In this document: piece by piece, positions 5,038 through 32,000 of the stretch | How positions within the stretch are numbered: the first letter of the stretch is position 1 | Layout: the number at the start of each line of letters is the position of its first letter | Assembly: GCA_965228485.1 (NCBI GenBank) | Contig: OZ245819.1 | Location: 630,001 to 662,000, forward strand | Source: Candidatus Saccharimonadota bacterium | GTDB lineage: Bacteria; Patescibacteriota; Gracilibacteria; UBA4473 | DNA length: 32,000 nucleotides | Reading direction: 5' to 3' | Position numbers and translations under genes: made by a program | Notes under the pieces: model-generated | What the model was told of the DNA's origin: nothing | What the model saw: only the letters and a program-made list of their open reading frames with translations | Databases searched by the model: none

Positions 5038-5439
5038 ATGAACAAAAACAAGCCAGAAATATATTCATCCAAAAGCGTCATACTAATGGTGGTGCTTTTT
5101 TTTATTTTATTCTGGCTACTCTACTCTATTGGAAGCTTTTTGCACGAATCTCAGAAAATTAGTAAAGAAATCGAAGAAATCAGACAAACCAATCATAAAC
5201 TTTCCAAAGAAATACAAGCGAAAGAACGTTATTTAGAATATTTAAAAACCCCTCAAAGAATTGAGAAAGAAGCTAAAATGCAAATGGGAAAAAAACTTCC
5301 TGGAGAAAAAGTCATTGTCCTCGTTGAAGAGGAAATTGAAATCCTCCCAACCGAAGCCAAAAGAGAGGCTCGAGAAAAAATTTTAGAAGTCCCAAATTGG
5401 CAAAAATGGTATTGGATTTTCTTTGGAGAAAAAATCTAA
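5038..5439 (+). CDS. septum formation initiator (FtsB/DivIC-like) membrane protein
   Basis: Single N-terminal TM (VILMVVLFFILFWLLYSIG), then a coiled coil and the ..IEKEAKMQMGKKLPGEKVIV.. motif typical of FtsB/DivIC (ARE.LG...PGE). Confidence 0.7.
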   Translation: MNKNKPEIYSSKSVILMVVLFFILFWLLYSIGSFLHESQKISKEIEEIRQTNHKLSKEIQAKERYLEYLKTPQRIEKEAKMQMGKKLPGEKVIVLVEEEIEILPTEAKREAREKILEVPNWQKWYWIFFGEKI

Positions 5440-7076: not shown

Positions 7077-7263
7077 TTTTATCAAAAAAATAAGGTGTGA
7101 CGATATAATAAAAAAACACACTCAACAAAACAACTAAGAATAATCCAGACCAAAAAAAGTGAATAAGAGGAAGATAGGGCAACATCCACGACTGCAAAGG
7201 GTAAAGCCCTGGAGCCTGAGAAACATCTTGTGTTACGATTTCAGAAAATATTTCTGGTGTCAT
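7045..7263 (-). CDS. 72-aa single-TM protein, partner of HTTM-like gene (paralog of 25486-25650)
   Basis: Starts 1 nt after the HTTM-like stop. ..APGLYPLQSWMLPYLPLIHFFWSGLFLVVLLSVFFYYIVTPYFFD.. aligns by eye with the micro-ORF downstream of the second HTTM-like gene (..SIGLWPIQKFLVQYWEVIYVLWWSLFFATACGVIYFFIIRPYLQD). Confidence 0.6.
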   Translation of the reverse strand: MTPEIFSEIVTQDVSQAPGLYPLQSWMLPYLPLIHFFWSGLFLVVLLSVFFYYIVTPYFFDKNESKQKPKRK

Positions 7264-7264
7264 A

Positions 7265-8536: not shown

Positions 8537-8599
8537 GTACGATTTAAGAGTAAGGGTTTTAAATAAAAAGCCCAAAAAATTTCGGACGCTACTAATAGA

Positions 8600-9100
8600 A
8601 TGAACCACACCGACAAAACCATCCTCTACCTTGCGGCTATTAAAAAGCTCAATCAAGATTCTGAACTAATGGCTCGACAGAAGCATATTATTAAAGAGTT
8701 AAATATTTCTCCTTCAACCTGCTCTGAGGCTATGTCCAAACTTATTCGAAAACAATTAGTTAGAGAGGATAACAGTCGGGTAATGCACCTTACTTCTGTA
8801 GGAAAAGACCTCCTTACAAATGCGGAACAAAACCATTCGATTTTTCGATACTTTTTTCGTGAAGTACTAAACCAGTGCTGTGAAGATGCAGAAAACCAAG
8901 CATTAAAAATCGAACCTCACCTAAGCCTAGAAACTAATTTAGAAATGTGTCGATTTGTAAACTTTCTCAAAACTCTCGAAGGAAAAAAGGTAGACTTTTG
9001 GAAAGAATGGAACGACTTTTTATTAGATCCCGAGACTGATCCTATATGTCAAAAATGTGCCTATAAAAAAACCTGTCTAAAAAGAAGAGCCGCTTCTTAG
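8600..9100 (+). CDS. DtxR/MntR-family metal-dependent transcriptional regulator (HTH + dimerisation domain, Cys-rich tail)
   Basis: ILYLAAIKKL..ARQKHIIKELNISPSTCSEAMSKLIRKQLVRED..HLTSVGKDLL..NHSIFRYFFREVL follows the DtxR pattern (YLE.IY.L..V..IA..L.VS..SV..M...L...GLV......V.LT..G......RH..LE.FL...L). The Cys/Glu/His cluster QCCEDAE..KIEPH sits where the DtxR metal ligands lie. Confidence 0.7.
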   Translation: MNHTDKTILYLAAIKKLNQDSELMARQKHIIKELNISPSTCSEAMSKLIRKQLVREDNSRVMHLTSVGKDLLTNAEQNHSIFRYFFREVLNQCCEDAENQALKIEPHLSLETNLEMCRFVNFLKTLEGKKVDFWKEWNDFLLDPETDPICQKCAYKKTCLKRRAAS

Positions 9101-11832: not shown

Positions 11833-12744
11833 CTAATAGCGCTTACAAACAATTATTCGATCTACCGGTTGGTCATGAGACTCGACCGGTATTTCTTTTT
11901 CTGTAGCAAATTTGGGAATTATCACAACCCTCTGTACTGATGAAGAAAGTTTCGATACAAAACGATCGTAAAAACCTCCTCCTTTTCCAAGCCGTTGAAA
12001 ATTTTCATCTACACCTACCGCTGGCAAAAACAAAATAGAAGAGTCTCCTGGAATTTCTGATTCCCCCTCTTTTGGAGGTTCTAATATTCCAAAAGCGCCC
12101 TGAACTAAATCATCATAGGAATCTACCGAATAAAATTCTAAATCATTCTGATTTACACGAGGGAAAAAATAGGTCTTATCTGAAAATTGCTGCATCAATC
12201 TTGGTACAAAAAGGATTTCTCTTTGTATCTGTGGTGCATATACAAAAATTTTCTTCGCCTCTAGAAAGGCCGACAATGTTGATAAATGCTCCAAAGCTTC
12301 TTCTGCCAAATGTTGTCGAGTACTGAGGGAAAGTTTTTCCCATTCAGATTCTATTTCTGCTCGAAGAAAGAACTTTTTGGCTCGAATAACATCTTCCTCT
12401 ATTTGAGTAAAAAGTTGGTCGCCGTTTTGAAATTTTCGTACTGATCTTACAAACTTGAGAACCTCAATCGTTATTTTTTCTCCATAAATATCCTGATTAA
12501 AATCAAGTATATGAACTTCTGCAGAGAAATCACCCCCAAAAGTTTTTCTTTTCCCAAAGTGAAGAATCCCACACCTTTTAGTAAGAGGTTTCAAAGGCCA
12601 ATAAACATAAACGAGATACACCCCCTCCTCTAGCGCAGGTAATTCTTCCAATAAAAGATTCGCTGTAGCAACTCCAAACCTTGAACCAATATTTACCCCT
12701 TGAATCACACTTCCTTTGAGTTCCATGGCTTCTATTTTAGACAC
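11833..12744 (-). CDS. fusion protein: riboflavin kinase domain + 5-formyltetrahydrofolate cyclo-ligase domain
   Basis: The N-terminal ~125 aa match the RibF C-terminal kinase domain (GSVIQGVNIGSRFGVATANL, GVYLV, EVHILDFNQDIYGEKITIEVLKFVRSVRKF). The C-terminus carries the MTHFS signature (LFLPAVGVDENFQRLGKGGGFYDRF). Confidence 0.8.
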   Translation of the reverse strand: MSKIEAMELKGSVIQGVNIGSRFGVATANLLLEELPALEEGVYLVYVYWPLKPLTKRCGILHFGKRKTFGGDFSAEVHILDFNQDIYGEKITIEVLKFVRSVRKFQNGDQLFTQIEEDVIRAKKFFLRAEIESEWEKLSLSTRQHLAEEALEHLSTLSAFLEAKKIFVYAPQIQREILFVPRLMQQFSDKTYFFPRVNQNDLEFYSVDSYDDLVQGAFGILEPPKEGESEIPGDSSILFLPAVGVDENFQRLGKGGGFYDRFVSKLSSSVQRVVIIPKFATEKEIPVESHDQPVDRIIVCKRY

Positions 12745-18495: not shown

Positions 18496-18572
18496 GGCTA
18501 TGTAGCTCAGCTGGTTAGAGCGTCGGATTCATAACCCGGAGGTCGGCGGTTCAAGTCCGCCCTTAGCCACCA
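18496..18572 (+). tRNA. tRNA with anticodon CAU (elongator Met or lysidine-modified Ile2; not initiator-like), CCA encoded
   Basis: Hand-folded cloverleaf: acceptor GGCTATG/CTTAGCC (one T-T mismatch), D arm GCTC-AGCTGGTTA-GAGC, anticodon loop TTCATAA, T arm GGCGG-TTCAAGT-CCGCC, discriminator A, CCA. G1-C72 is paired and there is no 3xG-C anticodon stem, so it is not tRNA-fMet. Confidence 0.9.
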
Positions 18573-18587
18573 CTTACGATAATATTT

Positions 18588-18621
18588 AAAAAAAGCCGAG
18601 ACTTGAGTCTCGGCTTTTTTT
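18588..18621. terminator. bidirectional rho-independent terminator shared by the tRNA (+) and the giant gene (-)
   Basis: AAAAAAA-GCCGAGAC-ttga-GTCTCGGC-TTTTTTT, a perfect 8-bp GC-rich stem with 7-nt A and T runs on either side. Confidence 0.8.
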
Positions 18622-18627
18622 CTTAGT

Positions 18628-21600
18628 TTATTGAAATGAAGCATTACCACTCGTCTCAAATCCAGGAGGTGGATCGTATGAAATTCGCTGATCAATTCTC
18701 ATAACAAATGAGTGTTTATTTGGATAACATGATCCTTCTAAATCTGTACATCGAGCTGCATTCAAATGGGTACCTCCTCCATTGAAGATAGGACTGTAAC
18801 GTCGAATATGATGTAGATCATATTTTTGCGCCACTGGGATACTCACAGATCTTCCCCATGGGTCTTGAGCATCTGGAAGCAGTTGAGCGCCTCCAAGGGT
18901 ATTTCGGGTTAATAATGCTCCAGTCTGAATCAATTGATTATTAAGATTCCCATTAATACTATCTCGGTCAAAATTCTCGCTAAATTGAGGATTATTTCTG
19001 CTTTCAGTTGTTGTCAGTGAACCATCTGCGAAAACCACCGCTGAGAAGAATTTTACATCTTTGTGGACAAAAATATTCCCTGTAGAGTTATAAGTCCCAG
19101 CAGACGGAGCACTTGGATCTGTATTAATAATCATAATTCCAAGAATATCATCTAGTCCTTGGTATCTTGTATCCCCGGCAATAAGAACATTTCCATCTTC
19201 AACAATGATAGTATGTTTCCCTCCGTTGATAATTTCTGGAACAACTTCAGTGGCTCCATTTCCAATTCTTACAATTCCACCTCGAACGTAAGTTACTCCT
19301 CCATCTTGAAGATTACTAAGATCAAGATCGAGAATACTTGAATTCTCTTGCGGTGCCAGCCCCCGAGTAAGCTCAAAGGCATTTCTTGTGGCTTCCTCGC
19401 GGATATCGATCTGAGTATTCCCTCCGAGGAACTGAGCCTGATCTCCAAGATCGGTGTCATCAGAGCTTATATAGATGAAGTCTTCGTCTTCAACCAATAC
19501 TCCCCCTTCGATATCAGCTCCTGCTGTTACGTAATCAAACTCAACACAACTACCAGGAGCTACAACATCACAAAGACATTCCTCTGGAGTCATTCCTTGA
19601 CAAGGAGGGATTGGTGGTGATGGACAAGTTCCTAAAATTTCACAAGGTCGTGGTGGTTCTGGAGTACAAAGACTTGGGAAGAGATCACATGGATCCGCTT
19701 CAGTACAAGTCTCTCCCGGCGGACAAGAAGGAGAACAGCCTCCTCCTACACACCCTGTTGGACAACTCCCTGGAACCGCACAAGCTGGACAAAGTTCAGG
19801 GAAAATACAAATATCCCCTGCCATTAATCCGAGATTATTTCCTGCGTAAACAAGATCCTCTCCATCTAGTCGGTATTTAATTTTAGAGGTAAATCCAGCC
19901 GCTAAGTTGGCTTGCCCTCCTGTTGGTCGAATATGGGTACAGACTAATTTTTCCGAATTCCAGTCTGAGATACCTGTAAATGGCACATTTCGACCATCTA
20001 CTGGAGTGGCTAAATCTTCATTATAGGTTTCCACATTTTCATCAATATGGGCCTTAATATTCACATCATAATTTACTGGAAGATCCTTTCCTGAATTTGT
20101 AGTTGTGGTGTAGGCATACAGACACTCTTCGGTATCAACTCCTACTTCCCATGGGGTAGAAGGCGGTTGATTATTTGGCCTATCACTTAAGAACAAAGAC
20201 ACCCAAGGATTAAAAAGGATTGGGACATCCATAGTAAAACTCTGACGAGTCCCTTGAACCACTCCTCGATTACTTACCATAGGGGAAGAGAGTTGTAGCG
20301 GCAGAGTCTTTGTAATTGGACTCATGAGTGCTGCACCGTTAATTCCTTCAATTACATTCACTGTTGGAAGAATCTCTCGTACATTAATTACTCGTGCACC
20401 ACTTGCTGGCGAAGACCAGTTAAGTTTATGCTTACCATCTTCTTTAGAGCCGCCTTGTAAACGCACTCCATTAAGATAATTATTCCCCATTTCAGTCACC
20501 ACATCATATGACCCTTCCGTATCCTGAGTTTGAGCAAAAGCGGTCATTGAAGAATTCTGAGCAATAACATTTTCAAAACGATCCTGAGTGATAAAACTCA
20601 CTTGACAAGCATCAGCAAGATTCGCGTATAAATCTCCATTTGTACAATTGTGATTCAAAGAAGATTCTGTTTGTGTTTTATCAGCTTCCGCAGGATAAAT
20701 CCGAATGTAAGCGGTTTGAATAGGATTGATTCGATTGTAGGCATTATCATAAATACGCACGGTAATTTTGTAGTTTCCTACTTGAGAGAAAATTGAGTGA
20801 TCTTCTCCATCAAACTTATATTGATTCACATTCCACTCAAAGCTATCTCCTCCCACAGGAGCCATAGTTGAATCTATGTAAGACTGTACAGGCCCACCTC
20901 CCAGACGTTCTATTTCTACATGAGATATTCCTAAATCCTCTAGGTCAGCGTTATTAAGTGCGGCAGCTTCCAAAGCTGCAATTTCATCTTGCAATGTACT
21001 AATCTGGCTATTTACATCCGTCAGTTGAGTATTGATATGGAACTGGGTAGCTCGATTATCTTGGATGGCTGTATTGTAGCTGGCATCCTGAGCAAGACTG
21101 TCAGCAATAATAGTTTCTCGACGACTCGTTCGGGAATCAATGTCATTAGTTGCATAGTCATCATAAACCGCTACCGCTTCACCAAAAACACCTGCTGGAT
21201 CTGTATCTCCATCAACCGTTGCAATGGCCTGACTCATTTGCGTCGCTCGACTAATTAATCCATTTATTTCTCCATAATCAAAAAATGGATCTAGGTACGG
21301 TGGCGGATCAACCGGTGGCGTTCCTAATGGTGGTGGATCAATTATAGAGTATCCTTGTAAGTCAGAAAGCGTCTGAGACACTCGACTGTTAAACTGATTA
21401 ATCCGAGTAACAGCCGTATTAATATGGCTTTCATGAGAACCCACCGCCGTAGGTGATAAGTCATGAATAAGGTCTGCAATATCGGTTGTAACCGTAAACC
21501 CAAGTTCCAAATCATCAATATTATTTCTTAAGCTTGGATCAAGTAGTGCAGTCTTATAAGGAACATAGAAATCGTTGTAACGATCATTAATAATCGTATC

Positions 21601-23079
21601 CATTTCGTCTACACTTTCTTCCCAATTCGGAATATAAAATGAATAATCTTCTACCTTACGAGCATTCCATTCATCTGAATAATTTCTGAGTGTATTATCA
21701 TCTGTCGTTGTACTGTCTTGTGGTGGGAGATTTGGAAAGTCAAAAACTCCTAATAGACTGTTGGTTTCCGCCATAGCAGTGTTTTTTCGAGTCTCAATAA
21801 AGTTCATATCAAAAGCTCCCAATTGGCTTCGAATAGAGCCTATACCACCAACACTATCAAATTTACTATCATTAATCTCAGAAACCACATCATTAAAGGT
21901 ATTTCTACTAATATTACGTGAAGCCAAATTTGCCGCTCTTGTTTCTAAATCGTCTAAATCTTGGATGATGTAAGAACTCGGGGCAGTAATATTTTCACTT
22001 ACCTTTTTCCAAAGATTCAAATTAAGGGTCATATTTGCTTTTACATAGTAGTTGGCAAGACGATTACCAATATCAAGAACCTCTTGAGCTAGTTGTTGAT
22101 CAAGGTTTTCTTGCAACTGATCCCGACGCTGCATCAACTGAAGTAGTTGACTTCTTTTCTGGCTAATTTCTTCACTCTCTACTACCTGATTCCAGTTAAG
22201 CCCAGACTCACAAGAATTACTTCCTCCTGGTCGATCTTCTACATCGATAAGCAAGAATAACGCCCCATCATCAGCTTTGAAACGACGAGGATTCCCTGCA
22301 GTCCCTTTTGACTCTGGTGGCATTCTCAATCCACGATGCTCAATCTGCATAACCCCATTAATCCGGGGAGCACCACGATCAATTAAGGCTGGAGGCGTTG
22401 TACAGTTTCTTGGCCCATTCCCTACTCGATCGTACATCGGAAAAGTTAATCGGTCTCCACATTTTGTAACCCTCTGCTTTGTATTATTCGCCTGACATCC
22501 TGCAGCATTTCTATCCTGAACGTTTCCCTGAATTGTAATTTGGTCACGACAAACCCCAAACCCATCTTTAAGAGTATTGGTTGTATAATTATATCGATCG
22601 TCAGCATAAAATTCGATTGAATCAGAGGCCCAAACACCATTAAGCCCTGTCGGCCATTCGTTAATTCCCGCACCAGTGTTTACAATTGGACACCGTGGTC
22701 GTGTTCTATCATAACGAATTGTCGCCGAAGCGGCTTCATTGACATTTTGACCAAAGTTATTGATAGTCGTTCTTCGAAAAACAACATTCCAGGTTCCTTC
22801 TGGTTTTTGCCCATTAGCATTAAGAGCTGGACTCTCAACAAAAGTCCACTGACCAACAGTCTGACTTCGGATAGGACCAACGGTTGTTACATCATTATTG
22901 GGAGCAGCACCAGATCGAACTTGAGCATTGATATTAAAATTCTGATTCTGTCCATTAATGGTACTATAAGTAGAATTACCATTCACTGGAGATACTTGAG
23001 CCAACAAGAACTCTGCTGAAGGCGAAGTTAATAGAAAAGATAAAACTAATAACGAAGCAAAAAATTTAGGTTTGTTCAT
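18628..23079 (-). CDS. giant secreted protein (1483 aa), Sec signal peptide, coiled-coil region, Cys/Pro-rich module; function unknown
   Basis: Uninterrupted 1483-codon ORF. Signal peptide MNKPKFFASLLVLSFLLTSPSAEFLLAQ. No C-terminal TM. The N-terminus is paralogous to the ORF at 31686. The start lies 10 nt after the stop of the 645-aa gene. Confidence 0.85.
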   Translation of the reverse strand: MNKPKFFASLLVLSFLLTSPSAEFLLAQVSPVNGNSTYSTINGQNQNFNINAQVRSGAAPNNDVTTVGPIRSQTVGQWTFVESPALNANGQKPEGTWNVVFRRTTINNFGQNVNEAASATIRYDRTRPRCPIVNTGAGINEWPTGLNGVWASDSIEFYADDRYNYTTNTLKDGFGVCRDQITIQGNVQDRNAAGCQANNTKQRVTKCGDRLTFPMYDRVGNGPRNCTTPPALIDRGAPRINGVMQIEHRGLRMPPESKGTAGNPRRFKADDGALFLLIDVEDRPGGSNSCESGLNWNQVVESEEISQKRSQLLQLMQRRDQLQENLDQQLAQEVLDIGNRLANYYVKANMTLNLNLWKKVSENITAPSSYIIQDLDDLETRAANLASRNISRNTFNDVVSEINDSKFDSVGGIGSIRSQLGAFDMNFIETRKNTAMAETNSLLGVFDFPNLPPQDSTTTDDNTLRNYSDEWNARKVEDYSFYIPNWEESVDEMDTIINDRYNDFYVPYKTALLDPSLRNNIDDLELGFTVTTDIADLIHDLSPTAVGSHESHINTAVTRINQFNSRVSQTLSDLQGYSIIDPPPLGTPPVDPPPYLDPFFDYGEINGLISRATQMSQAIATVDGDTDPAGVFGEAVAVYDDYATNDIDSRTSRRETIIADSLAQDASYNTAIQDNRATQFHINTQLTDVNSQISTLQDEIAALEAAALNNADLEDLGISHVEIERLGGGPVQSYIDSTMAPVGGDSFEWNVNQYKFDGEDHSIFSQVGNYKITVRIYDNAYNRINPIQTAYIRIYPAEADKTQTESSLNHNCTNGDLYANLADACQVSFITQDRFENVIAQNSSMTAFAQTQDTEGSYDVVTEMGNNYLNGVRLQGGSKEDGKHKLNWSSPASGARVINVREILPTVNVIEGINGAALMSPITKTLPLQLSSPMVSNRGVVQGTRQSFTMDVPILFNPWVSLFLSDRPNNQPPSTPWEVGVDTEECLYAYTTTTNSGKDLPVNYDVNIKAHIDENVETYNEDLATPVDGRNVPFTGISDWNSEKLVCTHIRPTGGQANLAAGFTSKIKYRLDGEDLVYAGNNLGLMAGDICIFPELCPACAVPGSCPTGCVGGGCSPSCPPGETCTEADPCDLFPSLCTPEPPRPCEILGTCPSPPIPPCQGMTPEECLCDVVAPGSCVEFDYVTAGADIEGGVLVEDEDFIYISSDDTDLGDQAQFLGGNTQIDIREEATRNAFELTRGLAPQENSSILDLDLSNLQDGGVTYVRGGIVRIGNGATEVVPEIINGGKHTIIVEDGNVLIAGDTRYQGLDDILGIMIINTDPSAPSAGTYNSTGNIFVHKDVKFFSAVVFADGSLTTTESRNNPQFSENFDRDSINGNLNNQLIQTGALLTRNTLGGAQLLPDAQDPWGRSVSIPVAQKYDLHHIRRYSPIFNGGGTHLNAARCTDLEGSCYPNKHSFVMRIDQRISYDPPPGFETSGNASFQ

Positions 23080-23089
23080 TCTCTAAATA

Positions 23090-25027
23090 TTATTTTCTAT
23101 AAAGTTTAATAGCACTCCAAACAAGAGACACCCCTACCATAAATAGGAATACTCCAACAAGCTTGAACCATAGTGGGTCTCTATTTTTCTGAGGTTCTAC
23201 AACCTCTGGCATCTCAGGTTCTTCATTTTTGGTTACTACTTCCTCTTCACCCTTATCTTTAAGTGTATTCACCAAATCATCAGACAAGGATTCTAATGCA
23301 CTTTCTGGCAAAACAGTATTTATCCCTTTCGCACTTATGTAATCTTGAAATTCATCAAACAAGATTCTTCGAGCACTATCATACTCTTCTTCGGTGATTC
23401 GACCATGAAGCTTCTTATTTTCAATATCAGCAAAATCCATCTTAAAGGTCTTGAATTGTTGTTCAAAAGCCTGAACTGTCGAGATTTTAGCCGCAAATTC
23501 TTTCTCTATATCTGTAATTTTTGAATACAATTCCTGGATGATAAGTGCATCTTCTTCAGCATCGATTTGTGCCTGAATTTCTGCAATTAAAGCATCTCGC
23601 TCATCAATCAAGGCTTGAATTTCATCATTCACATAACTTGTTTGAGAAATTTTTCGAAGACGAGCATCCATAATTGGAATCACTGCTCCTCCAAATTCCA
23701 TATCTTTATATTCAAGTGTTGATACATCTAGATTTGCAAGATCATCCGCCTGATCAACAATATGTTCTACATTCTCAAGTCTCTTTTGATAATCGATTGG
23801 ATATTCCATATATCTTCGATAGAAGGCATTTGACTCATCCTCTAGATCGAGGTTTTCGAAACCTCCATAATATCGACCGTAATTAGGAACTAAGGCAGCT
23901 CGAATCATATTCTGAACTGATTCATCTTCAATAGATTCGACCTTTTGAATAAGATCTAAAGGCACTCCATCATAAAGAGCTAGACCATCTCCAGAACCTC
24001 CAATAATCCCAAAATCTGTTTCATCGGATAATTGCTCATAAAGCTCCTGACGCATATTCGTAAAACTCTTATTTAGGTTTGCAGGATCAGTCATAAAATT
24101 ACGAGTATATTGAGCAATTTCAAAATCATTTAAGAAGCTATTTCCACTGTCATAACTTAAAAGGATTTGATTATAAACTAAAAGGACTGGACGCGTTCCG
24201 TCCTCATTTCTTTCTCGAGATAAAAAAGTATCACGCAATGTCGATCTCAAAAATTTATGATCATTTTTATCCTCGATGGTTTTATATTTAGCATCAGAAG
24301 CTTGCACATCGGTTCTCCAAAACAAATCTCGACTTACCTCTGTTTCGTCTTCACTAAAAGATTTCAGCACATATTGCTCCCCAGGAGTAAAAGTAAAGAC
24401 TCCACAACTCAAAAGATCTCCTCCGAAATCTTCCGATAAATGCTGAACAAAGACAATAAATTCTCGCATATCTCTATAAGGGTTTCCACCTGGAAAGTCC
24501 CTATTTGAAGCAGGATTTGGGTCTCTTGATCTCGGTGGATACTCAAAGGCATTTTGTCGTCCAAAAGTAACATAACGAGTATCAGTATAGTATCCGTTTA
24601 TAATTTCTTCTTCGCCATCATCATCTACATCACCAATTGAAGTCTCAACATCATCTTGGTAGGTAAGGATTCCTGACAAATTACGATTTGATTTTGCTGG
24701 CGTCAACTCGTAAGTGTAAACAGGCGAAACATTAAATAATTGATGAGGATAAAATTGAATATCATCCTGCAACATCGGAACAGGCACTTCGAAAGCCTTT
24801 ACAAAATCATCGTAAGTCGCAATTGAAAATTCTCCTGATTCAAGAGTTTCTCCCTCAGGGCCATTAATTTTTCTTACACTAGAAAAATCTAGATTAGCAA
24901 AAACTGCATCTGTTTTCATTTCTTCCTGCAAATTCATCAAGCAAGCTTGTTCAGGGGTAGTTTCCCGAGCTTGAGCCGTCACAAAAAGTAATGGCAATAA
25001 CCCCACCGCTAAACACAATCTATTCAT
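23090..25027 (-). CDS. 645-aa surface protein: signal peptide, DxDxDG-type loop, coiled coil, C-terminal TM anchor; paralog of 29611-31674
   Basis: Signal peptide MNRLCLAVGLLPLLFVTAQA; SIGDVDDDGEEEIINGYYTDTRYVTFG; heptad-like region IQALIDERDALIAEIQAQIDAEEDAL; C-terminal LWFKLVGVFLFMVGVSLVWSAIKLYRK. Collinear similarity to the 687-aa protein along its whole length. Confidence 0.85.
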   Translation of the reverse strand: MNRLCLAVGLLPLLFVTAQARETTPEQACLMNLQEEMKTDAVFANLDFSSVRKINGPEGETLESGEFSIATYDDFVKAFEVPVPMLQDDIQFYPHQLFNVSPVYTYELTPAKSNRNLSGILTYQDDVETSIGDVDDDGEEEIINGYYTDTRYVTFGRQNAFEYPPRSRDPNPASNRDFPGGNPYRDMREFIVFVQHLSEDFGGDLLSCGVFTFTPGEQYVLKSFSEDETEVSRDLFWRTDVQASDAKYKTIEDKNDHKFLRSTLRDTFLSRERNEDGTRPVLLVYNQILLSYDSGNSFLNDFEIAQYTRNFMTDPANLNKSFTNMRQELYEQLSDETDFGIIGGSGDGLALYDGVPLDLIQKVESIEDESVQNMIRAALVPNYGRYYGGFENLDLEDESNAFYRRYMEYPIDYQKRLENVEHIVDQADDLANLDVSTLEYKDMEFGGAVIPIMDARLRKISQTSYVNDEIQALIDERDALIAEIQAQIDAEEDALIIQELYSKITDIEKEFAAKISTVQAFEQQFKTFKMDFADIENKKLHGRITEEEYDSARRILFDEFQDYISAKGINTVLPESALESLSDDLVNTLKDKGEEEVVTKNEEPEMPEVVEPQKNRDPLWFKLVGVFLFMVGVSLVWSAIKLYRK

Positions 25028-25051
25028 TTTTATTTTTTAAGTTTTAATTAC

Positions 25052-25078
25052 AAAAAAAAGGCGCACTAGGCGCCTTTT
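25052..25078 (-). terminator. intrinsic terminator/attenuator between the 97-aa gene and the 645-aa gene
   Basis: The minus-strand transcript reads AAAAGGCGCC-uagu-GCGCCUUUUUUUU: a GC-rich stem GGCGC/GCGCC extended by A-U pairs, then an 8-U run. It sits 13 nt after the stop at 25091 and 25 nt before the ATG at 25027. Confidence 0.6.
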
Positions 25079-25090
25079 ATTAGATGATTC

Positions 25091-25384
25091 CTAGTTTCCT
25101 CCATCATCATCCCCATCATCCCCATCATCGTCTCCATTATCATTGTCAACCGATCGAAATTGGAATGTCTGGCCTGGGTCGCTGATGTTATAGGTCTGCT
25201 TTCCTGGACCAGCCCAACCATCAGGTGTATCTGTTGGGACTTGAATCTCTAAAGCTTTCGCTACTTGAGATGGCACCATGCACCCTGAACCACTTCCACA
25301 AAGCCAAAAATCGATGGCTAGGTAAAACAGCCCAACAGACGCACAGATAAGACCTGCGGCAAAGAATTGTTCTTTTCTACTCAT
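25091..25384 (-). CDS. 97-aa membrane-anchored small protein with Cys triad and poly-Asp/Gly C-terminal tail; paralog of 29296-29571
   Basis: MSRKEQFFAAGLICASVGLFYLAIDFWLCGSGSGC..DNDNGDDDGDDGDDDGGN. It shares an identical 12-residue core, CASVGLFYLAID, with the 91-aa paralog, plus conserved Cys spacing (C-x14-C-x5-C). Confidence 0.75.
   Translation of the reverse strand: MSRKEQFFAAGLICASVGLFYLAIDFWLCGSGSGCMVPSQVAKALEIQVPTDTPDGWAGPGKQTYNISDPGQTFQFRSVDNDNGDDDGDDGDDDGGN
25094..25147 (-). repeat. GAT/GGN trinucleotide-rich simple tract encoding the Asp/Gly tail
   Basis: The plus strand reads ..tcctccatcatcatccccatcatccccatcatcgtctccattatcattgtc.., including a tandem ATCATCCCC x2. Confidence 0.7.
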
Positions 25385-25407
25385 TTTTTAAGCGCTTAAT
25401 TTTCACA

Positions 25408-25437
25408 ATTCTAGCCTGTATAGCAATATCTAGTAAA
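25408..25437 (-). promoter_or_regulatory. promoter candidate for the 97-aa gene (TTTACT-N18-TAGAAT on minus strand)
   Basis: The -10 CTAGAAT lies 23 nt upstream of the ATG. The paralogous gene has the same CTAGAAT 26 nt upstream of its ATG. Confidence 0.3.
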
Positions 25438-25485
25438 GCTGTTTTATTTGCCTCACTTCTCTTTGTGTTATGAAGATACAATTAT

Positions 25486-25650
25486 TTAATCTTGCAAATA
25501 GGGACGAATGATAAAAAAATAAATAACACCGCAAGCCGTGGCAAAAAATAAACTCCACCATAGCACATAGATCACTTCCCAGTACTGTACGAGAAATTTT
25601 TGTATTGGCCATAGCCCAATAGATGGTTCATCAAATATTATAGATTTCAT
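25486..25650 (-). CDS. 54-aa single-TM micro-protein, partner of HTTM-like gene (not in supplied ORF track)
   Basis: Hand translation gives MKSIIFDEPSIGLWPIQKFLVQYWEVIYVLWWSLFFATACGVIYFFIIRPYLQD*. It starts 5 nt after the HTTM-like stop (25656) and is homologous by eye to the 72-aa ORF in the same position after the other HTTM-like gene. Confidence 0.6.
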   Translation of the reverse strand: MKSIIFDEPSIGLWPIQKFLVQYWEVIYVLWWSLFFATACGVIYFFIIRPYLQD

Positions 25651-25655
25651 TGAAA

Positions 25656-26918
25656 CTAGTGATAATAATTTTTAACAGGATACCCTATGATTTTGGCTTC
25701 ATCAGGGAACTTGATCCATTCGTTATGCTTCCAAGCACTGTATTCCAAATTACAGGCATTAGATTCGTCAATTAAACGATAAAAAGGCCCTCCATTGATC
25801 GAGTGATCAAACGTCCACTCAATCCTATCGATTGTGTTATTAACACGACACCTTTCACGCTGCTGATACCAATATTTATAAGGATCACAGCGATGACGAG
25901 CTAATCGTCGTTGTTTCACTTTTTCTCGGACCTCTCCATCGGTGTAATAAATTTTAGCCTTCGAAACACATTGATGATTTGCCTCAAACATATAAAGACC
26001 AAAATAATTTCCTTCAAGTGTAAACTTCTCATCCCCTGGGATAAAATGAGACCAAGATTGCCCTAAACACATAACACAAACCACAATCCAACCTGGAAGT
26101 GTCGACCAACCTTTTGGAATTTTTTTATACTCAAACCAAGGCCCAAAGAGTATTAATAACATTGGTAATACAGTGGTTGGATATCGATATTCAACTAGTA
26201 CCCCCGAATACAAATGAAAAGCTACAAAGAATAAGAAAACTATTCTTTGAATATACGTATTCTTGTGGAATAAAAACCAAGCCGCAACCACTTCCATAAA
26301 CATAACAAGATTTGTCCAAACTGGAATCGACCAATCAGGGAAGATTGGCAAACCTGTATGCATAGCTGAAAAATATGTACCCAAAATCCAGGTTTCGTGG
26401 ATTTTTACGGCCACAGAGAGGAAGTAGAATAAAACTAAATAAAATCGTAAAAAGAAAAGTTTCTGTGGAAGCACAAGTAATGCAAGTCCAAAAATTACTA
26501 CATAGTATTCATAATTACCGATATGACTGAAGGAAATAAACGTCATCAATGCTTTAAATACCCAGAGTAACAACGTCAAAAAATGAGCCTCCCCCCATTT
26601 CCCAAGGGACATACAATAAATTATAAGAGCCATAACAGCCCACACTCCCATAAAAAACATTGTTTGGGTATAACCAAAAGGAAGTGCGGATAAAAAAGCT
26701 AAATCCGAACAGTTTTGAAAATATGGCCAACATAAACTCGCTCCTCTTGCAACGGAATCAACGGTGAACTCACTATTCCCGATCCATTTATTAAATGTTA
26801 AGAACAATCCCAGCAAAAAAGCACCAAAAGCCCATTTAAGGATTCTATCGTTTTCTATTTCTTCAACAGAGAAAAACTTTTTGTAGACCGCAAATATTCT
26901 TGAATTTATATTTTTCAT
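25656..26918 (-). CDS. HTTM / vitamin K-dependent gamma-carboxylase-like polytopic membrane protein, copy 2
   Basis: Same landmarks as copy 1: LCWPYFQNC, NYEYYVVIFGLALLVLP, AVKIHETWILGTYF, FHLYSGVLV..LILFGPW, EANHQC..RHRC..C..NAC. Confidence 0.65.
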   Translation of the reverse strand: MKNINSRIFAVYKKFFSVEEIENDRILKWAFGAFLLGLFLTFNKWIGNSEFTVDSVARGASLCWPYFQNCSDLAFLSALPFGYTQTMFFMGVWAVMALIIYCMSLGKWGEAHFLTLLLWVFKALMTFISFSHIGNYEYYVVIFGLALLVLPQKLFFLRFYLVLFYFLSVAVKIHETWILGTYFSAMHTGLPIFPDWSIPVWTNLVMFMEVVAAWFLFHKNTYIQRIVFLFFVAFHLYSGVLVEYRYPTTVLPMLLILFGPWFEYKKIPKGWSTLPGWIVVCVMCLGQSWSHFIPGDEKFTLEGNYFGLYMFEANHQCVSKAKIYYTDGEVREKVKQRRLARHRCDPYKYWYQQRERCRVNNTIDRIEWTFDHSINGGPFYRLIDESNACNLEYSAWKHNEWIKFPDEAKIIGYPVKNYYH

Positions 26919-27024
26919 ATTACTAAAACTTGCCGCATTCTAAACGATTTAAAATAATAACACCAACCAACTTCCCTAGGCCGAACTTGTAAATTTAAAA
27001 TAAATTTGAAAGAATTTAGCCACA

Positions 27025-28041
27025 ATGATTGAAGCTATAAAAAAACATCCGATATACCAAAAATTTTTTGAAATCAACCCCCAAATATTGCAAACCTTTG
27101 TTATTGGAAATCTGTTGATTATTGGCGGAAAATATTTTGGATTTGTTGATATTAGCTGGTTAAATATAGCGATTGTTATCGGTTTGTGCGTCGTTGTAGA
27201 TTACGCTTTTCGATGTGTTCAAAACAAAGAAACAAAATTTCCGCACTCTGCCGTTAACTCTGCTATAGGGCTCTGTCTATTCCTTAGAACTACAAGTATC
27301 CCTATTTATGTGTTTGCCGCCGTACTTGCGATCCTCTCAAAACACTTCATTCAGATAAAAGGAAATCATTTTTTCAATCCATCTTATACAGCCATCTTTG
27401 CCAGCATTATGATGTTTCCGATTGTAGCTTATGTAAACCCCCTCCAATGGCAAACTGGAAGCTGGACTGCTGTGGGAATCATTGCACTCCTTGGAAGTCT
27501 TGTGATGCTAAGAGTTGGAACTTTTGCCATCGTAACAGGATACTTTGTAACGTTCTATGCCTGGATCAAACTTTTTACCAGTCATTCATGGGACGATATC
27601 AAAATTCTATTCTTTTCGGGAAGCTTTTTTATTTTAGTTTTTCACGGACTCACAGATCCTGCCATTATTCCAAAAAGAAAATTACATCGACTTCTTTATG
27701 TAACTCAAATCTCAACATTGTTTTTCGTCTATCGCTTATTTATAAATGAAAATTACAGCTTTTTCCTTGCCTACTTTACGGTGAACTTCCTAGAAATGTT
27801 TTTCTGGAAACTTGAAAACTATGAGTCAAAAATTGGAAACTGGAGAACTATTACCCAAGGTGCCGTAACACTAATCTTTTTTGGATTAATGGTTAACAGT
27901 AGCTATAACCACACTCAAAAATACAATGGAGTTTGGCCTGAGCTACTTACAAATCGATGTATTCAGCCTATCTGTGACTCAAGAGAAGCTAGAGACAATC
28001 TAGACCTCCTCACACCATTTTTTCTTTTTGAAAAAGACTAA
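27025..28041 (+). CDS. polytopic membrane protein, tentatively NQR2/RnfD/RnfE-superfamily-like, copy A
   Basis: About 8-10 hydrophobic helices. Motifs KHFIQIKGNHFFNPSYTA and FHGLTDPAIIPK resemble the RnfD/NqrB FNPA and TDPxT.P motifs (from memory). Paralog of 28038-29045. Confidence 0.5.
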   Translation: MIEAIKKHPIYQKFFEINPQILQTFVIGNLLIIGGKYFGFVDISWLNIAIVIGLCVVVDYAFRCVQNKETKFPHSAVNSAIGLCLFLRTTSIPIYVFAAVLAILSKHFIQIKGNHFFNPSYTAIFASIMMFPIVAYVNPLQWQTGSWTAVGIIALLGSLVMLRVGTFAIVTGYFVTFYAWIKLFTSHSWDDIKILFFSGSFFILVFHGLTDPAIIPKRKLHRLLYVTQISTLFFVYRLFINENYSFFLAYFTVNFLEMFFWKLENYESKIGNWRTITQGAVTLIFFGLMVNSSYNHTQKYNGVWPELLTNRCIQPICDSREARDNLDLLTPFFLFEKD

Positions 28042-29045
28042 ATATCAGGTTCCCACTGACAAACCAATTCTAAACACCGGTTCGTTAAAATCTCTGGCCA
28101 GATGTGGTCATGTTTTAGGTAGTAATTAATACTTAATCCGGCCATAGCCACAAAAATAACAACCGTGGTTAGAGACTGCCAAAAAGTACGAGCATTAAAC
28201 TTCATAAATTGACGAGACTCAAGATGCCAAAATGGAATTTCCAAAACGGTTACAATAACATACCCGATAAGAATCGAATAATTTTCGTTCAAAAACAATC
28301 GACAAATAAAGAAAAGCATCGAAGCCTGAACTACGTACATCAATCTGTGAAGTCGTTTTTTTGGTAAAATCGCTGGATCGGTTAACCCAAAAAAGGCCAC
28401 AATAAAGAAACTTCCGGTTAAAAATAGAACCTGCAAATCACCAAAGGTATAAGTCGTAAAGAGATTAAGCCACAGGAAGAAAGTTAAAAAGTAAGTAAGC
28501 ACAACATCAAACAGCCCAACACGCATCATTACAATACTTCCAACCGCCGCAATAACTGCTAATATCCAAAGCCCTCCCCCACTCCATTGAACTGGATTGG
28601 TATAAGCCACAATTGGAAACATAGCCCAACAAACTAAAACAGCTGTGTATGAAGGGTTAAGAAAATGCCTTCCTTTTATACGAACTAGATGTTTCGTTAG
28701 AATAGCAACAATAGCGGCAAACACATATATAGGGAGGACGGCCGTTCTCAAAAAGAAACAAATTCCAATTCCAGAGTTAATGGCTGAAAGTGGAATTATT
28801 TTTTTGTTATAGAAAAAGTAGTGACACAAAAAATCAAAAATCGTAATAGAGGCAAACACCGCCAACATATCTATCCAACGAATCTCTACAAAACCCAGGA
28901 ATTTACCTCCAAACAATAACAAGAAGCCAATTGCAAAGTTTTGAAAAAATTGAGGATGAATTTTTCCTAGCTGCTCAAAAAACATCGGCTTACAAACATA
29001 GTCCCGAGTGTCAGGAAAGTAACCAGCAATCTTTTTAAGCGACAT
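28038..29045 (-). CDS. polytopic membrane protein, tentatively NQR2/RnfD/RnfE-superfamily-like, copy B
   Basis: KHLVRIKGRHFLNPSYTA, FFGLTDPAILPK and a C-terminal WPEILTNRCLELVC (copy A: WPELLTNRCIQPIC). Convergent with copy A; the stop codons overlap within CTAA at 28038-28041. Confidence 0.5.
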   Translation of the reverse strand: MSLKKIAGYFPDTRDYVCKPMFFEQLGKIHPQFFQNFAIGFLLLFGGKFLGFVEIRWIDMLAVFASITIFDFLCHYFFYNKKIIPLSAINSGIGICFFLRTAVLPIYVFAAIVAILTKHLVRIKGRHFLNPSYTAVLVCWAMFPIVAYTNPVQWSGGGLWILAVIAAVGSIVMMRVGLFDVVLTYFLTFFLWLNLFTTYTFGDLQVLFLTGSFFIVAFFGLTDPAILPKKRLHRLMYVVQASMLFFICRLFLNENYSILIGYVIVTVLEIPFWHLESRQFMKFNARTFWQSLTTVVIFVAMAGLSINYYLKHDHIWPEILTNRCLELVCQWEPDI

Positions 29046-29239
29046 GGTAATAATAAAATTAATAAATTGGTAGATAGGATTTTAACAAGCAAAGCCAGGG
29101 TGACCAAATTTTTCTCCATACCGAAAAAGCATTCCCTATTTACAATATTATTTTTCAGTTTTTTGTAATTAGATAGAAGGAATAAACTAGACCTAAAAAA
29201 TAACTCCTACACAAAACAACTTTATTGCAATAGTATTTT

Positions 29240-29269
29240 TTTCAGTTTTAGACTCCATTAACCTAGAAT
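29240..29269 (+). promoter_or_regulatory. promoter candidate for the 91-aa gene (TTTCAG-N18-TAGAAT)
   Basis: CTAGAAT at 29263-29269, 26 nt upstream of the ATG at 29296. This mirrors the left-arm candidate. Confidence 0.3.
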
Positions 29270-29295
29270 CTGGAGAGATTTAATTAATATAAAAA

Positions 29296-29571
29296 ATGAG
29301 TCAACGAGAAAAAGTTGTCGGAGTAGGGTTTCTTTGTGCGTCTGTTGGTTTATTCTACCTAGCCATTGATTTATGGGTTTGTGGAAGCGATACAGTCTGC
29401 CAAAAAGAACACCACATCGCAAAAGCCATTACCATCGATTACGAAACTGAGGCCGATGATTGGTCTGGTCGTAATAAACCAAATTTTTACGTCAACTCTC
29501 CTGGGTTGAATGTATCCTTCCCTCCCCCACCATCAACTGGAGATGGTGATGGCGGCGGCGATGGTCACTAG
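29296..29571 (+). CDS. 91-aa membrane-anchored small protein with Cys triad, Pro tract and Gly/Asp tail; paralog of 25091-25384
   Basis: MSQREKVVGVGFLCASVGLFYLAIDLWVCGSDTVC..PPPPSTGDGDGGGDGH. Confidence 0.75.
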   Translation: MSQREKVVGVGFLCASVGLFYLAIDLWVCGSDTVCQKEHHIAKAITIDYETEADDWSGRNKPNFYVNSPGLNVSFPPPPSTGDGDGGGDGH

Positions 29572-29610
29572 TCCTTTAGCATATATTGTCCCTTAAAAAC
29601 CAATCATACC

Positions 29611-31674
29611 ATGATAAGAAATAATACAGCCTCACTTTTGTTAGCCTCTTTTTTGTTTACCAATCTAACCCCCGTAGCTTCTGCGGCTCGAGGTGGTGGA
29701 GGAAGTCCCGAAAATAAATGTATTCAGAATATTATTGAAGCGGCTGGTAGTCATACTGCTTTTTCAGATATTGATTTCTCAGCACTCGTAAAAACCAACG
29801 GTCCAGATGGATCAAAAGTTTCTTCTAAACCTTTCTCGGTAACCGATCATAATGAGTTTCTGGAAATCGCAGATACTCCAGTACCTTTAATCGATGACGA
29901 TCTATCTTATTTCCCAGATGAACTCGAGAAAGTTTCTCCTAATTACGTTGTTACGGAAGGAGTTCACAAATCTAATCGAAATAATGGTGCCTACTTGTTA
30001 TACAGCGATGGAACTTCAACCAGCATTGGAGATATTGATGGAGATGGAGAAGATGAAACTATTGATGGTTACTACGTAGACTCTCGATATGTTACCTTCG
30101 GAGATCAAAGTGATCTAGAGTTCTCTTTTCCAACACGAGATCCAAACCCAGATGATGATAGAGAATTTCCTATGGGGTCTCCATTAAAGGATATGCGTCA
30201 ATATTTATTCTTTACTCATCACCTAGCTTCTAAGTACGGGGGGAAATTTATGAGTTGTGGTTTGGTAAAAGTAAGTCCAACCGACGACTATGCACTTAAA
30301 TCTTATGCTGGAGAAAAATCAATTCGATGGACTTATTATGGTTTCCCTCGACCTCAACAAACAAATGTTAGAACTAATGTTAAAAATCGAGGAGGAGATA
30401 AATTCCGAATCGGAGATATTCGATTTATTGTCTCTGCAAAAGAAGTCGACACCGCCAATGGTGGATATCAATTCGATAATGAACTTCTAAAATACAATGT
30501 TCTTATTTCTGCTTATGACAATAGAAGTAACTTCATGAATGAATTCAAGACACTCAAAATTTTTGAGGAAAACATGAATGACACCACTAACGCCACAAGT
30601 TCTTTTGTTGAATCACGACTCAGTTTCTACCGAGCTCTTATCGATAAACTAAATCTTGGGATTCTAGGAAATCTTGAACTAGATGATGGGCTTGAAGAAG
30701 ATTCTGTAAGTTCAATTGATCCAACACAGCTATATGCAAGTGTATTAGATGCTGGAGGATCAGACACCACTAAATCAGGCGGGCTATCAATCATGCCTGG
30801 AGTAAGCTTAGAAACTTATGAGAAAGTGGAATCAATTGAAGACGAAACGACAAAAAACATGCTTCGATCCGCCCTGATTCCAGATTATGGAGGAATGATT
30901 GCCGATTTTACAGAGAAGCCTGCATCAGAAATGAATGATTTTGAAAAAGCTTATAACGAATATCCTCTAACATACGAAGAACGAGTAGAAAATGTTGAAT
31001 ACATTTTGGAAAATAGTGGTGGAGAAATCGAAAATCTAACACCAGAAAACTTTGAATATAAGGACATGGTTTTCGGGGAAGCGGTTATTCCAGTGACAGA
31101 CAAAAGAATCAGAGACATCGTTTCACAAAGCTATCTAGACAACGAAATGGCCGAGTTAGAAGCTAAAAAACAAGCTGAATTAGACAAAGTTGTGGTGACT
31201 GATGATATGAGTATCACAGATCAACAGGCTGCATACCGAGCTCAAGATGAAATTGAAAGGAGATACGAAGGAGAGTTGTCAAAACTGATGACTTTTGAAG
31301 GAGAGCTTGCAAACTTCAAAGTAAAATTTGCTGACGTAGAAAATCAATTTGAACACGGTCGTATTACCGAAAGCGAATATGAAACTAAAAGAAAGGCTCT
31401 ACTTAATGACTTTAATAACACCGTCAAAACTGGACAACTAGCTGATAGTGTTTCTAGCGATAGACTAAAAGCTCTGTCTCAATCACTTACGAATCGTGTT
31501 AATAGTGTTCAAGAAAATCAATCAACGAGCACTGATGAAACTTCTTCAGGTAAAAAAGGATACAGTACTCAAACACTTATTGTTAAAGGGTCGGCTGTAG
31601 CTCTATTTATAATCGCAATAGGACTAGCTTTATTGGCTATACGAAAAATTAAAAAAAACAGTAACACAAAATAA
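29611..31674 (+). CDS. 687-aa surface protein: signal peptide, DxDxDG-type loop, coiled coil, C-terminal TM anchor; paralog of 23090-25027
   Basis: Signal peptide MIRNNTASLLLASFLFTNLTPVASA; SIGDIDGDGEDETIDGYYVDSRYVTFG; FKVKFADVENQFEHGRITESEYE (left copy: FKMDFADIENKKLHGRITEEEYD); C-terminal TM AVALFIIAIGLALLAIRKIKKN. Confidence 0.85.
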   Translation: MIRNNTASLLLASFLFTNLTPVASAARGGGGSPENKCIQNIIEAAGSHTAFSDIDFSALVKTNGPDGSKVSSKPFSVTDHNEFLEIADTPVPLIDDDLSYFPDELEKVSPNYVVTEGVHKSNRNNGAYLLYSDGTSTSIGDIDGDGEDETIDGYYVDSRYVTFGDQSDLEFSFPTRDPNPDDDREFPMGSPLKDMRQYLFFTHHLASKYGGKFMSCGLVKVSPTDDYALKSYAGEKSIRWTYYGFPRPQQTNVRTNVKNRGGDKFRIGDIRFIVSAKEVDTANGGYQFDNELLKYNVLISAYDNRSNFMNEFKTLKIFEENMNDTTNATSSFVESRLSFYRALIDKLNLGILGNLELDDGLEEDSVSSIDPTQLYASVLDAGGSDTTKSGGLSIMPGVSLETYEKVESIEDETTKNMLRSALIPDYGGMIADFTEKPASEMNDFEKAYNEYPLTYEERVENVEYILENSGGEIENLTPENFEYKDMVFGEAVIPVTDKRIRDIVSQSYLDNEMAELEAKKQAELDKVVVTDDMSITDQQAAYRAQDEIERRYEGELSKLMTFEGELANFKVKFADVENQFEHGRITESEYETKRKALLNDFNNTVKTGQLADSVSSDRLKALSQSLTNRVNSVQENQSTSTDETSSGKKGYSTQTLIVKGSAVALFIIAIGLALLAIRKIKKNSNTK

Positions 31675-31685
31675 AAAAAATAATT

Positions 31686-32000
31686 ATGCATAAACACACA
31701 CAAAAGTTCATTGCTCTAGGCTATATCGCCATAAGTTTAGCGAGCTATGGTTCTGTGCAGGCACAATCTTTTAATTTCAGACTATCTGGAAACGTTCAGT
31801 ATAATGGAAGTCCTGCAGTAAATAGAAATTATAATGCCTCAGCAGAGCGTGGGCAGTACTTAAATAATAATCTCAACTCCATTGCCCCAACCGTAAGGAG
31901 TAATGCCATTGGTGGTAACGGAGGATTATCTACTCCAAGCCTAGCTCTTTCTGGAGCAAAGAAAGAAGGGAGAATTCCTGTTCAATTTAGCCGACAAATT
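31686..32000 (+). CDS. 5' part of a second giant secreted protein (continues beyond window; not in supplied ORF track)
   Basis: The ATG at 31686 lies 11 nt after the 687-aa stop, and the frame is open for 105 codons to the window edge. Hand translation gives MHKHTQKFIALGYIAISLASYGSVQAQSFNF.., a signal peptide. ..IAPTVRSNAIGGNGGLSTPSLALSGAKKEGRIPVQFSRQ aligns by eye with ..VGPIRSQTVGQWTFVESPALNANGQKPEGTWNVVFRRT of the 1483-aa protein. Confidence 0.7.
   Translation, partial: MHKHTQKFIALGYIAISLASYGSVQAQSFNFRLSGNVQYNGSPAVNRNYNASAERGQYLNNNLNSIAPTVRSNAIGGNGGLSTPSLALSGAKKEGRIPVQFSRQI

Follow-up and report, generated by a model that had tools for sequence, protein, structure and literature searches.

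Two gene modules, a candidate surface-protein cassette and a predicted GGCX-fold enzyme unit, meet in an envelope locus of a Patescibacteria chromosome

Positions 18628 to 32000 of a 32,000-nucleotide (nt) stretch of contig OZ245819.1 (the whole stretch is hereafter called the window) hold a block of genes for membrane and secreted proteins in which nearly every gene has a relative nearby. An earlier note on this DNA read the block as a mirror-image pair of surface-protein cassettes around a membrane-enzyme core, and proposed that its six protein families constitute one uncharacterised envelope system. Do these genes encode one apparatus, or have separate units come together here? We report that the block is a real and conserved envelope locus, as proposed, but that it contains two modules and not one six-part system. 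Module B is a lineage-restricted four-gene cassette, encoding a polytopic RnfD-like protein, a small protein, a membrane anchor and a giant secreted protein, and is present here as an old inverted duplication. Module A is a separate and widespread unit, comprising a 420-amino-acid (aa) enzyme, a partner of about 55 aa with one transmembrane (TM) helix, usually a β-propeller protein and often a protein with an acidic tail. We give slightly better than even credence to the explanation that, taken as a whole, assigns the two modules to a surface apparatus.

All of the open reading frames (ORFs) named in the earlier note exist, on the strands and at the coordinates claimed for them. The block is organized as follows.

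18628–23079, minus strand: left giant, 1483 aa, with a signal peptide and no membrane anchor.
23090–25027, minus strand: left anchor, 645 aa, with a signal peptide and a C-terminal TM helix.
25056–25078, minus strand: hairpin resembling an intrinsic terminator, with a 9-pair stem (5 G-C pairs) followed by T8; a consensus match only.
25091–25384, minus strand: left small protein, 97 aa, with an N-terminal TM helix and an Asp-rich tail.
25486–25650, minus strand: micro-ORF of 54 aa with one TM helix, a conserved companion of the 420-aa enzyme.
25656–26918, minus strand: 420-aa polytopic enzyme with the predicted fold of vitamin K-dependent γ-glutamyl carboxylase (GGCX; AlphaFold2 (AF2) and Foldseek), an extra paralog.
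27025–28041, plus strand: polytopic protein A, 338 aa, RnfD/NqrB-like (PF03116).
28038–29045, minus strand: polytopic protein B, 335 aa, paralog of A, transcribed away from the right-hand cassette.
29296–29571, plus strand: right small protein, 91 aa, tail ending in ...GDGDGGGDGH.
29611–31674, plus strand: right anchor, 687 aa, paralog of the left anchor.
31686–32000, plus strand: start of the right giant, with 105 codons visible and a signal peptide.

The mirror-image relationship claimed for the two arms is borne out by BLASTP. The anchors (645 and 687 aa) are 33% identical over 677 columns (E 2e-126), the small proteins (97 and 91 aa) 43% identical (E 2e-23) and the polytopic proteins (338 and 335 aa) 47% identical (E 2e-111). 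The giants match at their N termini (32% over 73 aa, E 1e-7), but this match is weak, with only the 105 visible codons of the right giant to compare. The stop codons of the convergent polytopic genes overlap (TAA at 28039–28041 and minus-strand TAG at 28038–28040), and the anchor–giant spacers measure 10 and 11 nt, both as the earlier note had described. DNA identity between the arms is patchy (66–78% over 41–230 nt, all inverted); since similarity is left in short patches only, the duplication is old, which had also been claimed, and both arms are intact despite the almost total loss of DNA similarity. Two features had been missed: the 420-aa gene and its micro-ORF have paralogs elsewhere in the window, at 7265–8656 and 7045–7263, and a strong terminator-like hairpin lies between the left small and anchor genes.

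To which of these genes does the conservation belong? Contexts of the anchor and polytopic families were gathered by homolog look-ups and a metagenome scan, and duplicates were merged (related loci carry L numbers; L007 is the same as L004 and L097 the same as L089, and L092–L094 were counted as one). This gave 11 distinct cassettes, two in the window and the others in L004, L005, L006, L086, L087, L088, L089, L092 and L095, from at least nine genomes or contigs. In every anchor or polytopic locus with enough flanking sequence, the polytopic gene adjoins the other three, usually divergently, and is followed by genes for the small protein (82–126 aa), the anchor (534–749 aa) and the giant (1252 to more than 3259 aa), in that order. 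Intergenic spacing within the cassette is tight (10–63 nt) and protein identity among the 11 cassettes is 24–52%, the RnfD-like gene being the best conserved member (40–52%). The small–anchor–giant order, which the earlier note had taken for a unit from its recurrence in the two arms, is thus kept across all 11 cassettes. The families are rare, with 57 representative clusters of the anchor among 1.84 billion proteins and 11 matches for the polytopic protein. Synteny with the window is seen at one locus, L086, where TatD-GT2-PRPP synthase-MiaB...NusA adjoin the only cassette; these shared flanking housekeeping genes indicate vertical inheritance of the cassette. The TatD block adjoins the polytopic side of the cassette in L086, L095 and L008 (23–436), and the 3′ side of the giant gene in L029 (583–1341).

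The 420-aa enzyme follows a different pattern. Among the 11 cassettes, its gene lies within or beside the cassette in the left arm of the window and in L004, an Altimarinota relative in which three enzyme paralogs flank the cassette. In L086, the 420-aa gene lies with a 60-aa ORF and a β-propeller gene about 9 kb from the cassette. Synteny across loci thus links four of the six families, the RnfD-like gene being always beside small–anchor–giant, whereas the enzyme is mostly found elsewhere with partners of its own; the idea of six families acting as a single obligate system is not supported by this comparison.

These partners were identified from 79 loci of GTDB genomes. Some 50 of the 87 enzyme gene copies are followed by a single-TM ORF of 55–90 aa that carries the motif ...Q..L.P....WW, so that the 54-aa micro-ORF, suggested in the earlier note as a tiny TM partner, is a genuine and conserved gene, with 48% identity to the micro-ORF of L004. 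A homolog of the PQQ/BamB-type β-propellers lies within 10 kb of the enzyme gene, usually adjacent to it, in 49 of the 83 enzyme-bearing loci (85 were fetched). Moreover, ORFs encoding proteins with an N-terminal TM helix and an acidic tail are concentrated around module A: all 20 are found no more than 3 kb from a module A gene, and the other 531 kb of these same loci contain none (binomial p = 4e-7). These proteins (67–120 aa, with an xHA-D-V/A-P motif and an Asp/Gly(/Cys/Ser)-rich tail) occur in L001, L010, L013–L015, L019–L021, L026, L032, L035, L038, L039, L041–L043, L049, L059, L061 and L083, and are candidate substrates or partners of the enzyme.

The window itself holds a complete canonical module A at 5436–8656 on the minus strand.

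7265–8656, minus strand: second GGCX-fold paralog, 463-aa ORF, 54% identical to the 420-aa protein (E 1e-165).
7045–7263, minus strand: canonical micro-ORF, 72 aa, with a TM helix and ...PLQSWMLPY....FW.
5436–7121, minus strand: PQQ/BamB-type β-propeller, 561 aa (Pfam PQQ_2 and Beta-prop_ACSF4).

The TTG start of the 463-aa ORF at 8656 overlaps a DtxR-like gene (8600–9100) and its homology begins at residue 47–53, so the true start probably lies downstream. The propeller protein carries a weak phosphoribosyltransferase-like stretch (residues ~131–195) ahead of the propeller. Given this complete module, the enzyme and micro-ORF at 25486–26918 are an extra pair, which separates polytopic gene A from the left small gene. 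The left small gene occupies the slot that an acidic-tail protein has in Paceibacteria (enzyme, micro-ORF, acidic-tail protein), and the terminator-like hairpin behind it suggests that these three genes, for enzyme, micro-ORF and small protein, may be transcribed together.

These data bear on the explanation closest to the earlier proposal, in which one obligate six-family envelope system uses the GGCX-like and RnfD-like proteins jointly to assemble or modify an anchor–giant fibril. The presence of the enzyme and micro-ORF inside the left arm speaks for it, as do the three enzyme paralogs around the L004 cassette and the apparent co-transcription of the left small gene with the enzyme. Against it, the cassettes of L086, L087, L088, L089 and L092–95 and the right arm of the window contain no enzyme, the enzyme is far commoner (more than 536 matches) than the anchor (57 clusters) or the polytopic protein (11), and it has conserved partners of its own. 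We therefore regard an obligate six-family system as unlikely.

What kind of enzyme does module A encode? The earlier label, HTTM/VKGC-like, holds at the level of fold and finds no counterpart in profile databases. The AF2 model of the 420-aa protein (pLDDT 85, pTM 0.86) was compared with the PDB using Foldseek, and the 14 significant matches (E ≤ 1e-4) were all chains of human GGCX (E down to 7.8e-7, probability 1.0, TMq 0.54–0.59; next match, E 0.56). The match spans ~440–480 columns and includes both the TM core and the extracytoplasmic β-domain. By contrast, neither Pfam (at E ≤ 0.1) nor NCBIfam has a profile that detects the window protein; the HTTM and VKG_Carbox profiles of Pfam match none of the 35 family members, PF22777 (VKGC_lumenal_dom) matches one of the 35 (E 0.087), and neither the window protein nor a profile of the 35-member family has a match among PDB sequences. 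By its predicted fold, the 420-aa family belongs to the GGCX superfamily, as a divergent clade that has gone unannotated. It has more than 536 matches at ~50% identity in many classes of the candidate phyla radiation (CPR) and in proteobacterial and Bdellovibrio-like metagenome-assembled genomes (MAGs). MAGs labelled Micavibrio, Rickettsiales, Caenarcanales, Rhodospirillaceae and Pseudobdellovibrionaceae, which are names of predatory or host-dependent lineages though the labels may be wrong, carry the family with no propeller neighbour (L033, L034, L044–L047, L053–L058, L065, L068, L072 and L083–L085); on Micavibrio-type contigs, the gene lies between rpsL-rpsG-fusA-tuf and rpoC.

A comparison of residues points to a partly retained active site. 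The GGCX reference sequence agreed with that of the PDB chains at 580 of 581 positions. In alignments made with hmmsearch and hmmalign, K172, W177 and G180 of the window protein, which form a K-x4-W-x2-G motif invariant in 35 of 35 members, correspond to K218, W223 and G226 of GGCX; the match is weak (conditional E 0.002) and collinear with the fold match. In GGCX, Lys218 is the general base and is stacked on Trp223, and Asn159, His160 and Tyr395 hold the substrate Glu (PMC12647623). The invariant N135 aligns with Asn159, and a G-L-Y motif (Y309), matched by eye, is a possible counterpart of Tyr395. The family probably keeps the quinol-activating half-reaction and combines it with a different substrate site. 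MloH, a bacterial GGCX orthologue that carboxylates an aspartyl residue (PMC12647623; bioRxiv 10.64898/2026.08.19.745780), is a precedent for such chemistry in bacteria. Furthermore, bacterial HTTM proteins are predicted to need a separate partner whose TM helix replaces a GGCX helix (bioRxiv 10.64898/2026.08.19.745780), which would provide, by analogy, a precedent for the micro-ORF partner of this enzyme. The pairs of HTTM with DUF5819 proteins resemble module A in having a separate single-TM partner, but differ in that the partner here is a micro-protein of ~55 aa and not DUF5819. The enzyme is also shorter than GGCX (420 versus 758 aa), and its genomic company of a β-propeller and Asp/Gly-tailed proteins is new relative to GGCX, HTTM and MloH.

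How might the cassette proteins be displayed at the cell surface? The AF2 model of the left anchor (pLDDT 84, pTM 0.74) consists of a signal peptide, a β-rich N-domain, a helical domain, a long helical hairpin or coiled coil (helices 467–586) and a C-terminal TM helix, and its fold has no significant match in the PDB (best E 0.057, TM-score at most 0.11) and none among the viral structures of BFVD. The right anchor is 38% identical to that of L004. In L086 (6815–9571) and L087 (6927–9531) the anchor is split across two genes, the second of which (316–319 aa) corresponds to residues ~350–680 of the window anchors, indicating a protein made of two separable halves. The Mycoplasma MG_279/MG_280 family TIGR04527 scores 18.9 bits against a cut-off of 125, and covers the coiled-coil/TM tail of the right anchor only. 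By inspection, the two window anchors share no sorting motif ahead of the C-terminal TM helix (...NRDPLWFKLVG... and ...YSTQTLIVKGS...), and the small proteins have no prepilin G/FTLxE leader; no Pfam match in the window proteins relates to display of the sortase, exosortase or pilin type.

The left giant is 37% identical to its ortholog in L004, and it matches the giant of L005 at 26% over the N-terminal ~1100 aa and at 44% over the C-terminal domain. The best-conserved part is the C-terminal ~300 aa. The left giant has no match in Pfam, NCBIfam, PHROG or PADLOC, and a profile of its C-terminal domain (A6) has none in Pfam or the PDB; likewise, in tests for a phage or defence origin, the cassette proteins had no PHROG or PADLOC match. 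The small proteins have in common a TM helix, C-x5-6-C, W(S/A)G(P/R) and a Gly/Asp-rich tail, which in the left copy are represented by C-x5-C, WAGP and an Asp-rich tail ending in ...DDGDDDGGN. Ten of the 11 cassette small proteins end in His (...DGH, ...GEH, ...RSH), and the exception is the left copy in the window, behind the enzyme. An 82-aa protein encoded downstream of the enzyme gene in L037 likewise ends in ...GGN.

The fourth cassette family, called RnfD-like in the earlier note, proves to be so. PF03116 matches polytopic protein A with 29.5 bits (cut-off 27.7) and B with 23.5 bits, and the family profile A5 matches Azotobacter vinelandii RnfD (8ahx_D) with E 7.3e-13. The homology extends over the two halves of the membrane domain, with the FNP(A/S) and TDP motifs of RnfD/NqrB retained; the invariant motifs of the polytopic family are KHFFNPS, QW, TDP and LTNRC..C. 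Profile A5 aligns with RnfD residues 28–137 and 219–336 only, and the query advances ~14 positions across the gap. The polytopic family thus has no counterpart of a central segment of ~80 residues (RnfD residues ~138–218), which we take to hold the threonine that carries covalent flavin mononucleotide (FMN). In contrast to RnfD and NqrB, the window protein stands alone, with no co-encoded Rnf subunits, and its family has an extra conserved C-terminal LTNRC..C tail; RnfA/B/C/E/G or NqrA/C-F were found neither in the window nor among the called genes of L086–L089. The missing FMN-bearing segment, together with the lack of Rnf/Nqr subunits nearby, makes a redox role through FMN unlikely, and the polytopic protein is possibly a scaffold or conduit. 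A distant stand-alone RnfD-like protein (279 aa, PF03116) is encoded in L098 (1208–3501), followed directly by a DUF2330 protein; in further bacteria, too, RnfD relatives that stand alone or lack the flavin loop may have exported proteins as partners.

A conduit at this position is the core of a second alternative, in which the cassette is a device for host interaction or uptake: the RnfD-like protein does the work, and the giant and anchor position the channel at the contact site. Folds of the RnfD/NqrB type form ion or small-molecule conduits. This reading draws on the standing of the RnfD-like gene as the best conserved (40–52%) and invariably linked member of the cassette, on the retention of the NPS and TDP motifs of the RnfD family and on the pairing of the distant stand-alone relative with a predicted exported DUF2330 protein. 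A transport role for the conserved motifs, however, is suggested by general knowledge of Nqr and Rnf structures, and the surrounding genes encode neither partner subunits nor energising components. We consider an uptake device improbable.

We favour instead an arrangement in which the cassette probably encodes a surface fibril or adhesin that is anchored in the membrane. After export by Sec, the giant would be retained at the surface of the cell by the tail-anchored protein, docking there through its conserved C-terminal domain while the variable body projects outward, and the RnfD-like and small proteins would form a membrane base. Such an apparatus could mediate attachment to hosts or surfaces, in keeping with an episymbiotic lifestyle. 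In module A, the GGCX-fold enzyme would oxidise quinol and modify, possibly by carboxylation, acidic residues in the tails of small proteins, acting in cis in the window and in trans wherever its gene lies apart from the cassette. The two modules would be linked by the small acidic-tailed protein, which would serve the enzyme as substrate or partner. This link is the weakest step: that it runs through the small protein is probable from position, architecture and analogy, and not from homology.

Several observations weigh against this arrangement. Nine of the 11 cassettes have no gene for the 420-aa enzyme inside them, and the acidic-tail proteins of Paceibacteria share an architecture with the cassette small proteins but no detectable sequence similarity. 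In the enzyme, the segment around Lys218 is the only part that aligns robustly with GGCX by sequence, and the position of GGCX His160 is occupied by Tyr (31 members) or Phe (4). We infer all three of the points on which the arrangement turns, namely binding of the giant by the anchor, exposure at the surface and action of the enzyme on the small protein. Finally, CPR bacteria usually lack quinone biosynthesis, so these cells would either have to scavenge a cofactor of the vitamin K type or use a different chemistry.

A more specific version takes the enzyme, micro-protein and propeller as a bacterial system for post-translational carboxylation, or a related quinol-driven modification, acting on the Asp/Gly-rich tails of the small membrane-anchored proteins. 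In CPR bacteria of the Gracilibacteria type, the modified tail (for example, a Ca2+-binding, Gla-like one) would become part of a new RnfD-like/anchor/giant apparatus for host attachment that uses a host-derived cofactor. As quinone synthesis is not expected, the cofactor would come from the host, which would tie assembly of the surface structure to host contact. We regard this version as doubtful. Least credible, to the point that we set it aside, is a fortuitous cluster of lineage-specific hypothetical genes and their duplicates with no common function: no protein of the set has a characterised homolog and the cassette is rare, but order and orientation are kept across 11 cassettes at 24–52% identity, including loci that align better under code 25, spacing is a tight 10–63 nt, and the duplicated arms are intact though their DNA similarity is nearly gone.

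In what kind of chromosome does the locus sit? The nearest relatives of the block proteins come from MAGs labelled Candidatus Altimarinota, Gracilibacteria, Kaiserbacteria, Paceibacterota and similar Patescibacteria/CPR names, and the window is from a Gracilibacteria/Altimarinota-type Patescibacteria chromosome. Housekeeping genes (DnaJ, Pth, NusA, MDH, MiaB, PRPP synthase and TatD) lie upstream of the block, and its left boundary is marked by one further feature, located exactly at the edge, with TatD on one side and the giant gene, by its 3′ end, on the other.

18496–18621, plus strand: tRNA-Met (CAT) and a 15-pair bidirectional terminator, left boundary of the block.

No long ORF in the window is interrupted by TGA, and TGA serves as stop in one of the 26 main ORFs (the 72-aa micro-ORF). 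Four related loci (L006, L079, L082 and L090) align better under genetic code 25, which suggests that UGA is reassigned in relatives; as several loci align better in this way, the cassette extends into UGA-recoded Gracilibacteria. Elsewhere in the window, riboflavin kinase and 5-formyltetrahydrofolate cyclo-ligase domains are fused in one ORF (11833–12744, minus strand), a fusion also present in L086, and an 877-aa ORF (394–3027, plus strand) has zero Pfam matches.

Does the cassette belong to a known kind of surface system? Giant surface proteins have been reported in other episymbiotic CPR bacteria and in DPANN archaea. In general terms, giant adhesins with a dedicated anchor resemble the cassette in that a Sec-exported giant is encoded right after a membrane-anchored partner in a host-dependent lineage, and in that the giant combines a variable body with a conserved terminal domain. 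The cassette differs from them in having no domains in common according to Pfam, NCBIfam, PHROGs and PADLOC, and in an anchor fold unmatched in the PDB and BFVD; signatures of sortase-type, S-layer-homology or pilin systems were not seen in its proteins. No publication on module A or module B was found in the literature, which was covered incompletely. We rate the cassette as lying outside the known kinds of system, with a giant adhesin plus its anchor as the familiar general idea behind it.

A large part of bacterial diversity belongs to the CPR or Patescibacteria, which live attached to other cells, and to our knowledge little has been reported of the molecules that make this contact besides type IV pili. 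The four-gene cassette, with an anchor of no known fold and an RnfD relative that lacks the flavin segment, is a candidate for such a role. Module A brings to light a large unannotated GGCX-fold clade that has the catalytic Lys/Trp motif and has candidate substrates encoded alongside, and it illustrates that fold searches recover enzyme families missed by all current sequence profiles. If the enzyme modifies ribosomally synthesised proteins, a modification so far known on such proteins only from animal GGCX would reach bacteria, and where quinone-poor symbionts obtain the cofactor would become a question in the biology of these organisms.

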